DNA of 64,000 nt from positions 186,001 through 250,000 of the forward strand of contig JAHDYR010000066.1 of NCBI GenBank assembly GCA_019828565.1, in the 5' to 3' direction. Of the stretch, positions 56,073 through 60,488 are shown one piece after another (within the stretch, counting starts at the first letter, position 1; each line of letters starts with the position of its first letter). This stretch comes from Carpediemonas membranifera BICM (taxonomy: Eukaryota > Protista > Fornicata). The notes beneath the pieces are model-generated. The model saw only the letters and a program-made list of their open reading frames with translations, was not told the origin of the DNA and ran no database searches. A program made the position numbers and the translations under genes.

Positions 56073-56142
56073 TGTTGTGGTAACACACGACGGCGCTCGA
56101 GTCAGTGCAGTTTATGTAAAGAGAATTCCGTTTGCCGCCGCA
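56073..56142 (+). repeat. 5' LTR (70 bp)
   Basis: TGTTGTGGTAAC...TTTGCCGCCGCA, identical to 60419-60488. Confidence 0.96.
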
Positions 56143-56161
56143 TAAGTAATTACTTTGCTTA

Positions 56162-59100
56162 ATGGTAAGCTTGAGCATCGATTATTCATTCCCTAGCATC
56201 GAAGCAAAGGATCTTACGCAAAAACGCGTTCGTGTCTTCAAGCGTGAAGTGAGAGTCTTTAAGACGCGCCATCCTGACTTCAAGATAGCTCTACTACTGT
56301 GCGATTCCCTTCAAAAGGAGATTGAGATTCATTACGGCCTCAAGAGAGCCGAAGATCTCTCCGAAGAACAAGTCTTCGACTTCCTCACGAAGGAGTCCAT
56401 GCCGAAGAGCTTGAGCGCCCTCAAAACTCAGCTTAAGCAGCTTCAGTGCTCCACTACAGCGATCAGCAAACTCCCACTCACCACTTGCGTGCGCGAGTTC
56501 ATCGCTGACTTCATGGAGCTTGCTGAGCTCGCCGAGACCGTCGCCCTCAATGACGACGCGACTCGAGCCATGATCCCTCTTTACGGTCTTAAGTCCGCCG
56601 AAGAGGCTTTTATCGACGAAGACGGTACCGCTAAGAAGCGTACGGTCCAACGTCAGTTCACGGTGGCAGAGGCCGCGCGCCTCCGCGCCGACAAGTTCGA
56701 TAAGGTTGCACGGGAGATCTTCCTTAAGCGAATCAAGCCTAAGGCACTCTTTGAGCGCCTTGATCTAGAGTCCAAGCTCTGCGAGGCCAAGACTCTTACC
56801 TCTCTGGTTGCGGTGGCACGTGCTGTTGCCAAGGCCGAGGAGGCTCACCCAACCCCCGACCCGAGCGGCGGGGGCGAGCCTCCTAATAACAACATCAGTC
56901 TTAAGGGCAGCGCGCCACAGACCCAGAAATCAGAGACGCCCTCCACGGTGCTGCCTGGCAAGAGAAAGATGCGCCCTTGCCGGCACTGCGGACAGATGCA
57001 TTACGACAATCTGTGTCCCACTCTCAGCGTCAACAAGCCAGAGTCCAATAAGCGTAGTGCCCCGCCGTTGAAGACGTACCCAAAGAGAACCGGCGACCAC
57101 ACCCTTGCACCCTTCGAAGCAATGGAGGCAGGAGACGAGGCGCTGACGACGAAGGCCATTGTAAATGGCAGAGACTATATCATGGTCGTGGACACTGGGG
57201 CCACTCATCCGTTCATCCCCGAGAACACACTACGAGAGATGAAGGAGAACGACCCAGGCATCAAGACAATCCCATGTCCGACCTTTAGAGTAAGAGTCGC
57301 GGGAGGGGCCATCGTGACAGGAAAGACAGCCGTAGAGCTCACGATCACCTTACCAGACATCGGACCGCGCGTCCTGATTGTCACGATCCGAATGCTTGTG
57401 ATCCCAGGATCGGGACGCATGCTCCTCGGATGTAGCGCTCTCAGAGCCCTCGGGCTGCTCAGCGACGAAGGCCTACACATATATAAGCCGCAGACGCCCT
57501 CGCAGGCGACTGACGGCGACGACGATATCGCGCTCGACCACCCGTACCTCGCTTGTGCAGTGGAGGACGAAGGCAGTGACCAGGTCAGCCTCATCAACAT
57601 CCCAGACTCCGAGATAGCTGGCGAGATAAGAACTCTAGCGGAGAAATACGCGCAGATATTCGACCCACACCTCCCGGAGAGCAACGGTCTGAAGCCTATG
57701 ACCATAGAGCTGACTGAGGACACCACAGTTCGAGTGGGCCCGCGCCCCTTGAACGCTCAGAAGAGGCATCTAGTGGAAGAGGAGGTGGCAAGACTGGAGA
57801 AGGAGGAGATAGTGCGACCGAGTGTCGGACCGTTTGCCTCCCCAGTCGTAGTAGTGTCGGGTGGACACAAGGGGTCTGACAAGATCCGATTATGCATAGA
57901 CTATAAGAGTCTGAACGCTATCACAGTGAAGGACCACTACCCACTGCCGAACATCCAGGAGTTCGTGCGAGAGGCCGCAGGGTGCAAGTACTACGCGACA
58001 CTTGACTTGCGTCAAGGGTACTACCAGCTCTCCATGGCGGAGGAGGACGTACATAAGACAGCGTTCATCACCCCGGACAACTACATGGAGTTCTTGCGCT
58101 GCCCGTTCGGGCTAACCAATGCCCCATCCCGCTTCCAGCGGGAGATGGACAGGGTGTATGCCCCACTGCTACACAAGGGGACCTCAGTATACATCGACGA
58201 TATCTTCGTTTACGCTCGTTCGAAGGAAGAGTTCTTAGAGATCCTTGAGAGGGTCTTCCAGAGAACTGACGAATTCAACTTGCGACTCAAGGCGCCGAAA
58301 TGCACGATAGGGGCAGCCGAAGCTGAGGTCGTGGGGTACATACTGGACGCGCAAGGGCAACGACTAGCCCCATCGCGTATCGAGGCAGTGCTAGACATGC
58401 CACCGCCGACCAACTACAAGGCCTTAGAGCGGACGCTAGGCTCCCTTAACTACGTGTCGCGCTTTGTGGACGACTCCAGCAGAGTGCTGACCCCCCTGAA
58501 TCGCCTGAGGAAGGACTCGCAGCCTGGACAACCGGTCAGTTGGACGAGTGAGCACCAGCAGGCGTTCGACAATTTCAAGCTGAAGGTGAAAGAGGCTGTG
58601 TCGCTAGCGTTCCCTGACCCTTCCAAGAAGTGGGAGTTGCACACAGACGCCAGCGCTACCGGGTTTGGAGGTGTACTTTACCAACAGCAGAGCGAGGAGA
58701 AGTGGGAGATTGTCTCCTTCTTCGCCGGGAGCTTCAGTGAAACACAACAGCGGTGGAGTACGTACGAACAAGAGTTGTACGCCATCCTGGCGTGCCTTAC
58801 CAGCAGTCACCTGTCGCCCCTGTTTAAGCTGCACCACAACCTCACAATCAGATCTGATCACAGAAATCTGATGTACCTTATGGGAAAGCGGGACCTGAAC
58901 AACAAGCTGATGAGGTGGTCTCTGATACTGAGTGACTACAAATTCAGTATCCTCCACATCGCGGGTCGAGACAATCAAGTCGCAGACCAGCTGTCCAGGG
59001 TAGAAGCCCAAGCGGGGGAGACGCTAAGCTGGAGCGAGAGAATCATGAAGGCGCAAGCAGCGCACGAGAGAGAGAGATACCTGGGTCAGGGCTGGCTACT

Positions 59101-60416
59101 CGAGAGACCGTGATGGAATCTGGAAGTTCGAAGGCATTCCCATCGTACCTGAAGGCGCGACGGAACTGAAGGACGAGCTCCTCCAGTACGCCCACCGCCG
59201 TCACAGTGGACGATCAGGAACTATGAGCTCCCTCAAGGATGTGGCATTCTGGCGAGGACGCGCTACCGCCGTTGCCAACCATGTCAAGGACTGCATTGTC
59301 TGTAGAAAGACCAGGCTGCGGGACTTCATCCAGACTACGAACAGCTCTACCACGGACGGCCTGACAGCGCCGTGGGAGTGCGTCTCCATTGACACGATCG
59401 GACCAATCCACGGAGAGTCGCGCTTCCACTACATCTTCGTGGCGACCGACATGTTCAGTCGTTACACTGAGCTGATGCCTGCCGAGGTCAATACGGGCCA
59501 GCAGGCTGCAAGGGCCCTCTGGCTGCTAGCCTGCCGACACGGCGTGCCGACAGTAATTCAGTCAGACAACGGTCCAGAGTACGTGAACAGCGTCATCTCG
59601 GAGCTCGTAACACTCATGCACACGTTCCACCGTAGGACACTGCCTTACCACCCTCAATCGAATGGTGTGGTAGAGCGACGCAACGCCGAAGTCATGAGAC
59701 ACGTCAGATGGCTAACACTGGCATTGAACGACTTCAGCAGGTGGGAAGAGACCCTGCCATATGTTCAACACATCCTCAATAGTGCTGTCCACACAGCAAC
59801 AGGATTCTCGCCGAACGAGGTCCTGTATGGGCGCTACGTGGAGATCGGCCAGCTGCGGAGGACACCGCCGGCGGCACCCTCTAAGATTGATGTGGTTAGG
59901 GACGTCAAGACGGCCCTAGACAACCTCCGACGCCTTCAGGAAGACGTGGTGAAGGTCATTCGAGATGAGCACCTCGCCGTCGAGCACTTTAGGGATGACA
60001 CTGAAGCGACTCAACTCAGCGCAGGGGACTTCGTCCTGGAGAGGCCAGTGAACAAATCGAAGCTACATGGCCTCAAGGGACCCTATAAGGTACTAAGAGT
60101 CCTCGAGCATAAGGCTGTCGAGATAGGCTCACTAGTCGACGACAGTGTGCGGGTTGTGCATGTGTCACGACTCAGCAGAGTCACCGTCCCTGACCTTGAT
60201 GAGGGCAGGAGATTGGCCGCGACAGACTCAGAAGAGTTCCAAGTCCAAGCCGTCCGGAAACACCGGATCAAGCGTGGCGTTCGGGAGATCTTAGTAGAAT
60301 GGGTGGGCTATTCCAATCCCACCTGGGAGAGATACGGGCCCGACAACTGGGACAATGTATTTGTTATCAGCTACATCCATGACAACTCCCTCGCTTGGAA
60401 GAAGACGAGGGGGTAG
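56162..60416 (+). CDS. Gag-Pol polyprotein with one frameshift at a (GA)6 run (~59066-59077)
   Basis: CRHCGQMHYDNLC knuckle, VVDTGA protease, RLCIDYK/LDLRQGY/PFGL/YIDD RT, HTDASA RNase H, AHRRHSG..CIVC and IDTIGP/SDNG/VER integrase, GPY, chromodomain EEFQVQAV..LVEWVGY..TWE. Confidence 0.93.
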
Positions 60417-60418
60417 AG

Positions 60419-60488
60419 TGTTGTGGTAACACACGACGGCGCTCGAGTCAGTGCAGTTTATGTAAAGAGAATTCCGTTTGCCGCCGCA
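60419..60488 (+). repeat. 3' LTR (70 bp)
   Basis: Identical to the 5' LTR; preceded by a purine tract that contains the stop codon. Confidence 0.96.

Follow-up and report, generated by a model that had tools for sequence, protein, structure and literature searches.

How does a retrotransposon start reverse transcription when its long terminal repeats (LTRs) are only 70 bp long and a palindrome occupies the place where the binding site of a tRNA primer is expected? This question is raised by an element in a 64,000-nt stretch (the window; all element coordinates are window positions) of contig JAHDYR010000066.1 of Carpediemonas membranifera BICM, a free-living anaerobic protist. The element (56073-60488, plus strand, 4416 bp) is a full-length Ty3/gypsy LTR retrotransposon. 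Its two LTRs, located at 56073-56142 and 60419-60488, start with TG and end with CA; as an earlier note on this DNA had described, they are 70 bp long and have the same sequence (blastn between the two copies, E 4.5e-36). A third LTR copy was not found in the 64-kb window. The ATG at 56162 sits 19 bp past the 5' LTR, and the final stop codon (TAG, 60414-60416) lies inside a polypurine tract (PPT) of 22 nt (60397-60418), 2 bp ahead of the 3' LTR. From start to final stop, 4255 of the 4416 bp (96.4%) are covered, so that the element has almost no non-coding DNA, as the earlier note had also stated. This span consists of two overlapping frames and not of one open reading frame (ORF).

A tRNA primer site starting with TGG was sought next to the 5' LTR of the window element and was not found. 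The LTR is followed by TA and the palindrome, and the first TGG occurs at the ATG. Priming by a tRNA from this TGG (56163) was rejected, since it lies within the start codon, 20 nt past the LTR. At the expected primer position, a perfect 12-bp palindrome is located instead (56144-56155, plus strand). It is surrounded by a short predicted stem between the unique 5' region of the LTR (U5) and the leader, in which the final 3 nt of the LTR pair with 56156-56158. Rfam gave 0 matches at 55900-56400.

Relatives of the element were collected by a scan with alignment A1, which gave 78 loci, 27 of them from one assembly (contig ids PPCM01...). The palindrome was tested in 18 elements, the window element and 17 of the 27 PPCM01 loci; left out were the duplicates L006 and L015 and the loci with a 5' end that was not located (L010, L012, L013, L016, L018, L020, L023 and L050). 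Of the latter, L050 has a 16-bp palindrome ahead of an ATG and L016 has none in the stretch read. In all eight elements with an LTR end fixed by the 3' copy, a palindrome of 10-14 bp is centred 4-7 nt past this end. Behind the 3' LTRs it occurs at none of 7 testable sites. The palindrome of the window element begins 2 nt past the final A of the LTR, that of most relatives at the final A or just before. A test blind to the LTR end, in which the palindrome centre had to be 5-25 nt upstream of the gag ATG, found it in 17 of the 18 elements versus 58 of 2190 other ATGs (2.6%); in the single miss, L019, the palindrome is located farther upstream, at the LTR end. The leader has a length of only 13-22 nt in 17/18 elements.

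Outside this group, 31 of 51 other loci were read as having a palindrome behind CA in the non-coding DNA upstream of gag, a count which includes many near-copies and LTR ends that are mostly not fixed independently. The LTRs of these wider palindrome-bearing loci are about 290-390 bp long (12 of 13 estimates, with L056 as the exception), and therefore the palindrome is more widespread than the short LTR. L062, which groups with plant and fungal rows, bears a TGGTATCAGAGC site in place of the palindrome, which we take to be of the tRNA-Met type.

The sequence of the palindrome changes quickly. Among six environmental relatives, which are 83-96% identical, the palindromes differ at 0-10 of 12 positions and stay fully paired, and the flanks show 0-1 differences per 20 positions in the 10 pairs without L024 (the flank count of L024 is inflated by a 1-nt gap). 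Over 10 distinct environmental rows, 5 of the 6 base pairs of the palindrome have changes in both partners, and no pair is broken; 100% of the changed cells stay paired versus 29-46% in slid controls. The palindromes vary and yet stay paired, and therefore the symmetry and not the sequence is kept. In each of the 17 palindromes, the four bases at the centre are self-complementary. Two tandem copies on one contig, L036:73 and L036:5734, have different perfect palindromes at the same site. This pair may be the clearest case of fast palindrome turnover; the alternative is a chimeric assembly.

We propose that reverse transcription of these elements starts without a tRNA: the palindrome next to the 5' LTR would join two RNA copies by pairing, and one of the paired RNAs would be cut, probably by the RNase H of the element, to give the primer. 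We assign a probability of roughly 45% to this reading. The cut by RNase H is proposed in analogy to Tf1, an LTR element which is primed by its own RNA (PMC4600332, in which RNase H cleavage appears in the title of a reference). By its geometry, the duplex would set the 3' end of the partner RNA at the edge of U5, where minus-strand synthesis would start. Primers of the tRNA type are copied during plus-strand synthesis. Here, plus-strand synthesis would copy the primer into the site, and a change in one arm would be templated into the other; this would explain the fast turnover with perfect symmetry.

The central bases are symmetric throughout, which would not be needed in the loop of a hairpin, and dimer priming is therefore favoured. 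In 17/17 elements the predicted dimer beats two hairpins by 8-16 kcal/mol. A fixed host RNA is unlikely as primer, because the palindrome sequences are too many and too different. Self-priming of the Tf1 type was rejected, since no complement between LTR and leader was better than shuffles in 16/16 elements: the longest perfect match has 3-6 nt and is equalled by 10-100 of 100 shuffles (window element: 4 nt, 91 of 100 shuffles as good). Taking pairing between two RNAs and folding back of one RNA together, it is fairly probable that the palindrome acts as RNA and that the primer derives from the element's own transcript. That the pairing occurs between two RNAs and not in a hairpin would be a little short of an even chance.

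Several points weigh against dimer priming. In 10 of the 18 elements, the end of the LTR was placed manually, beside the palindrome. The shuffle control ignores relatedness, and the structure was derived from the same sequences. Perfect palindromes always score better as dimers than as hairpins, and the energies therefore add no independent support. Primer, cut site and start site are predictions from the sequence. If one RNA folded back, the second strand transfer could also keep the central symmetry. Finally, the palindromes for dimer initiation in retroviruses coexist with a normal primer site, as discussed in the GalEa report (PMC5445492), so pairing need not mean priming.

In the strongest alternative, the palindrome is only a signal for dimerisation or packaging which sorts the RNA of one family into particles, with a protein, a tRNA fragment or a small RNA as primer. 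The paired turnover fits such self-recognition, and palindromic dimer signals are described for retroviruses in the passages of PMC5445492 on this subject and for Ty1 and Ty3. However, the palindrome fills the exact primer position and no other site is present beside U5; the leader of just 13-22 nt also speaks against it, and no fixed host RNA could match sequences as varied as these. We regard a function restricted to dimerisation or packaging as rather unlikely.

Self-priming by fold-back seems unlikely as well. Here, a hairpin of 4-5 bp would form in one RNA, extended by the stem between U5 and leader; a cut 3' of the hairpin would give the primer, and a second, uncut RNA would serve as template for the site. 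In most elements, the predictions include short stems around the palindrome that join LTR end and leader, one of their pairs changes on both sides in the environmental rows, and the fungal GalEa elements have a hairpin at the same place, according to the description of this site in PMC5445492. Nevertheless, only weak monomer folds (-2.8 to -6.8 kcal/mol) are predicted for the 34-nt segments, the bases of the loop are self-complementary throughout, and the 5' 103 nt of the window element fold no better than shuffles (z -0.65). A function of the palindrome as DNA, i.e., as an initiator or as a target of a dimeric host protein close to the ATG in a compact protist promoter, would fit its AT-rich composition, its distance of 8-16 nt from the ATG in 17/18 short-LTR elements and the frequently retained outer AGT..ACT, but is highly improbable, as sequence and length vary freely while the symmetry is retained, as the palindrome of the environmental relatives is tied to the LTR end though their ATG is farther off, as only 2.6% of other ATGs have one, and as no replicable RNA could arise from transcription that starts downstream of the LTR.

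Priming without a tRNA site has been described for other LTR elements, and dimer priming can be compared with these cases to the extent that the cited texts cover them. The Conserved Hairpin Site of the fungal Ty1/copia elements GalEa is the closest one, and its priming mechanism is presented as unsolved in the relevant part of PMC5445492 (cited in PMC6934838). As in the window element, there is no tRNA primer site, and the first base of the GalEa palindrome is the final A of the 5' LTR (PMC5445492). In our set, a palindrome starting at the LTR end was found in 8/8 elements with fixed LTR ends. Particular to GalEa are its copia type, LTRs of 138-311 bp, a 5-bp target-site duplication (TSD), a nearly fixed 10-bp palindrome, with two sequences in 85% of families, and a second complementary arm located 12-41 bp downstream, all according to the same description (PMC5445492). 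In contrast, the window element is a gypsy element and its type of palindrome is highly variable with paired changes. No second arm of the GalEa type occurs in the predicted folds of these elements, and in the window element the ATG follows 6 nt past the palindrome.

Tf1, Tj1, Sushi and Tcn1 are Ty3/gypsy elements primed by their own RNA without a tRNA, and integrases with a chromodomain are common among them, as summarised in PMC4600332 and PMC6317226; among plant chromoviruses, self-priming is reported for Tcn1 in the latter. Their own feature is that the mRNA primes with its 5' end, which is located in the LTR and is complementary to a site that is not palindromic (PMC4600332, PMC6317226). 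Skipper from dictyostelids is also a protist Ty3/gypsy element with a chromodomain, for which the sections on its primer region give no tRNA site and no LTR complement, and its authors propose an unknown priming mode (PMC5006619). It has a polypyrimidine stretch and not a palindrome at this position (PMC5006619), and the Skipper sequence stands outside our tree. Neither the present elements nor a Ty3/gypsy element with a palindromic primer site were found described in the literature searched, to which subscription journals, Repbase, GyDB, the supplements of PMC6317226, with the type of primer site for each element, and those of PMC8516963 do not belong; these supplements may bear on the point.

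The short LTRs are found in all close relatives measured. Between two copies on one contig, LTRs of 80 bp (L005), 89 bp (L007), 78 bp (L014 and L017) and 71 bp (L051) were determined. A total of 16 lengths is reached when the window element and contigs closing on a single LTR are included, with hand-set ends that may be off by up to 4 nt; 14 of them are 67-89 bp, the others 117 and 129 bp, and the median is 78 bp. In L009, one LTR is about 10 nt longer than the other. The earlier note had named as a refutation that other copies have longer LTRs and that the window copy is thus internally deleted, in which case the family would have ordinary LTRs. The sister copies of the window family are known here from proteins alone, and the distant palindrome-bearing elements have the LTRs of about 290-390 bp given above (12 of 13 estimates), which leaves some room for it. 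However, LTRs of 67-129 bp in all close relatives, the intact ends, TAAA motif and PPT and the equal length of the two LTRs make a deletion extremely improbable. Judged by the measured sequences, the short LTR is a trait of the lineage and not a deletion. Silkworm (Bombyx mori) contains an element, Mag, with a 77-bp LTR. The elements of the Mag lineage in mosquitoes are likewise coding-complete gypsy elements with short LTRs; those of Culex have 119-304 bp (PMC3286476 Table 1), so that the window LTR is shorter than any in this table. Their own features, in the same source, are primer sites for tRNA-Leu/Ser/Arg and mostly 5-bp TSDs (PMC3286476).

The two ends of the LTR (56073-56084 and 56130-56142) are imperfect inverted copies of each other over about 12 bp and likely represent the attachment sites of the integrase. 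TGTAAA at 56115-56120 (plus strand), with the functional copy at 60461-60466, is likely a poly(A) signal; its TAAA ends 22 nt upstream of the LTR end, and in 15 of 16 LTRs TAAA is located 15-44 nt upstream of this end. TAAA is found at most 63 nt from the stop codon in 11/12 host ORFs versus 224 of 3900 background windows (5.7%), and it is likely that the LTR carries a poly(A) signal of this host type. In the host genes (window 1-41000), TAAA often overlaps the TAA stop codon and is likely the poly(A) signal of the protist. The LTR is probably so short because it needs only the integrase ends, a compact AT-rich promoter and the host TAAA-type poly(A) signal. The coding region reaches the LTR in several relatives: in 16 elements with both positions, the stop codon is located 2 nt upstream of the 3' LTR in 6 and inside it in 5.

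The insertion is flanked by GGGG on both sides (56069-56072 and 60489-60492, plus strand). The length of this TSD was tested on the interrupted target gene, because GGGG is a run of G; the target frame is restored with 4 extra bases and not with 3, 5 or 6, which confirms the 4 bp of the earlier note. With two direct TG..CA LTRs, a PPT and a TSD in the range of 4-6 bp, the element has the structure of Ty3/gypsy. The TSD is also 4 bp long in L017 and L051 and, as a point against uniformity of this trait, 5 bp in a solo LTR of the relative L014.

ORF1 (56162-59113, plus strand) encodes 983 aa with Gag, protease (aa 331-428), reverse transcriptase (aa 570-727, with YIDD) and RNase H (aa 794-926). 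The second frame (59049-60416, plus strand, +1) encodes the integrase with HHCC finger, DDE core, GPY motif and chromodomain. The Pfam order Asp_protease_2, RVT_1, RT_RNaseH, Integrase_H2C2 and rve corresponds to that of Ty3/gypsy, with the catalytic motifs present. Gag carries the zinc-knuckle variant C-X2-C-X3-H-X4-C. Its aa 1-290 gave no Pfam match, and a structure search with Gag reached a template modelling score of at most 0.31; Atlas feature matches at 0.90-0.93 belong to clusters of retrotransposon Gag/zf-CCHC and are a lead only.

The closest named protein is J8273_0553 of Carpediemonas membranifera (P0044), which is 100% identical over 69% of the searched region. Its cluster has three members, on contigs of three different lengths: P0044, ORF1 of the window (P0165) and P0164, which is identical to the last 238 aa of ORF1. 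Over the shared length, P0044 and ORF1 differ by 2 substitutions, a 2-aa indel and a 21-aa indel, and P0044 therefore represents a separate copy. Short CCCA repeats border the 21-aa gap of P0044, which is read as a real indel between copies, and by these protein sequences the window family has at least three copies. J8273_6974 (P0050) belongs to another family of the same clade and is a continuous ORF of 1432 aa. Both P0044 and P0050 are annotated merely as hypothetical or reverse transcriptase domain proteins, and both are known here from proteins alone. The earlier note had deduced recent activity from the identical LTRs. This argument is weak, since 0 of 70 differences permits up to 4.2% divergence; the near-identical sister proteins are better evidence for it. 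Protein-based scans found no relative among viral contigs or prokaryote genomes, and a 25-nt LTR pattern gave 0 matches in metagenome contigs.

ORF1 stops at 59113 and the integrase continues in the +1 frame, whose first ATG occurs only at 59223, within the zinc finger. By homology with relatives that read through, the switch was placed at a (GA)6 run (59066-59077, plus strand), so that about 12-14 of the last codons of ORF1 are past it. A switch at the ORF1 stop (CCG TGA) was rejected, since the homology sets it about 12 codons upstream. As assembled, the window copy cannot make an in-frame integrase. The (GA)6 run and a C6 run (58491-58496, plus strand), where P0044 ends, are the only two simple runs in the element, and they are the two known frame breaks. 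Long-read consensus errors persist at such simple runs in repeats. The assembly behind the P0044 record was made from Nanopore R9.4 and Illumina reads, as stated in the part of PMC8516963 on sequencing. The +1 break is probably a slippage indel that arose as a systematic assembly error. A real inherited mutation is less likely, and a programmed frameshift on the repeat appears improbable. P0164 shares the stop with ORF1 and the break is thus common to two copies; this fits a systematic assembly error and, as a point against it, equally an inherited mutation.

The chromodomain is located at the C-terminus of the integrase (about 60231-60344), with CBX7 (E 3.4e-4), HP1, Swi6 and Chp1 as best PDB matches. 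In the alignment it keeps three cage aromatics, F, W and Y, at cage positions assigned by comparison with HP1. Pfam Chromo stays under its cutoff for the element (15.2 of 25.1 bits). The GPY motif before the chromodomain is present, with G344-P345 nearly invariant in 13 rows. A tree of reverse transcriptase and RNase H was calculated with 75 rows, picked from the 176 of a first tree after which the groups are named, with near-copies dropped; reference rows were selected from the hits according to source names and Pfam domains, and the tree lacks Tf1, Maggy, Skipper and Ty3. The window element falls into a clade of 19 rows (support 99 in the Shimodaira-Hasegawa-like approximate likelihood ratio test) within a group of 46 rows (98), which holds all palindrome-bearing rows and is apart from 11 plant and fungal chromovirus-type rows (98). 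Joining the 19-row clade with these 11 rows was rejected by the approximately unbiased test (p-AU 0.0035). The element is thus a chromovirus, as the earlier note had called it, in the loose sense of chromodomain, cage aromatics and GPY motif, but does not group with the plant and fungal chromovirus-type rows.

The element is inserted in another integrase gene within a cluster of mobile elements, a location that is at most circumstantial for integration into heterochromatin through methyl-lysine binding, as expected of chromoviruses. The 5' part of this unrelated gene is located at 60489-61460 (minus strand; rve, E 6.7e-12) and the 3' part, with a chromodomain, at 55844-56068 (minus strand; Pfam Chromo, E 1.8e-10). 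Its frame reads through to the chromodomain only when the element and 4 bases are removed. No reverse transcriptase is found upstream of it and no LTR or PPT past its stop, which is followed by TGTAAA after 18 nt; it may be a stand-alone integrase of the Ginger or Polinton type. Its best matches among the loci reach about 30% (L019 minus strand, L025, L050 and L017). Short-LTR elements are often located inside or beside other mobile elements (L016, L017, L019, L005), and an L016-type element has its integrase disrupted by L017. Such nesting may reflect guidance by the chromodomain.

Upstream of the insertion, a non-LTR retrotransposon (50999-54360, plus strand) with apurinic/apyrimidinic endonuclease and reverse transcriptase has several frame breaks, with short G/C runs in each of the three break regions viewed. 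Directly upstream of it, overlapping ORFs of 463 and 991 aa without Pfam match (46457-50351, plus strand) are possibly its ORF1 or another mobile element. A 100-aa ORF at 55479-55781 (plus strand) shows a chromodomain-like residue pattern by eye and gave no Pfam match. Between the target integrase and an ORF without Pfam match that runs from 62334 to the window end, there is an AT-rich inverted repeat (61732-61838) with arms of 51 nt that are 76% complementary. At the other end of the window, a segment of 485 bp is present in inverted orientation at 1985-2469 and 5958-6442 (99.8% identity) around two host genes.

In the case that dimer priming holds beyond the window family, a Ty3/gypsy lineage spread over protists might use a third priming mode, in which the two packaged RNAs serve as primers for one another by way of a palindrome that each cycle rewrites from the primer, so that it would drift fast and yet stay perfectly symmetric. 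The palindrome would then be a barcode for self-recognition against co-packaging between families, and the Carpediemonas-type branch would have shrunk its cis signals to a 70-bp LTR and a 19-nt leader. We consider this wider picture doubtful. With 70 bp, the LTR is below the 100-bp default of LTRharvest (PMC2253517), as the earlier note had expected of LTR finders, and a large survey with LTR-FINDER also set its minimum at 100 bp (PMC6317226). LTRs of less than 100 bp without a tRNA site fall under such default settings, and retrotransposons of metamonads are likely under-counted. The known LTR elements are primed by a tRNA or, in the Tf1 group, by their own 5' end; from GalEa and Skipper it is evident that there are further modes, with mechanisms that are unsolved. 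The short-LTR lineage is a sharp and testable candidate for another mode, and the element is about the smallest possible test system, with all cis signals in roughly 110 bases. The short LTR alone is a modest finding; the question becomes testable because a palindromic primer site falls within such a compact set of cis signals.

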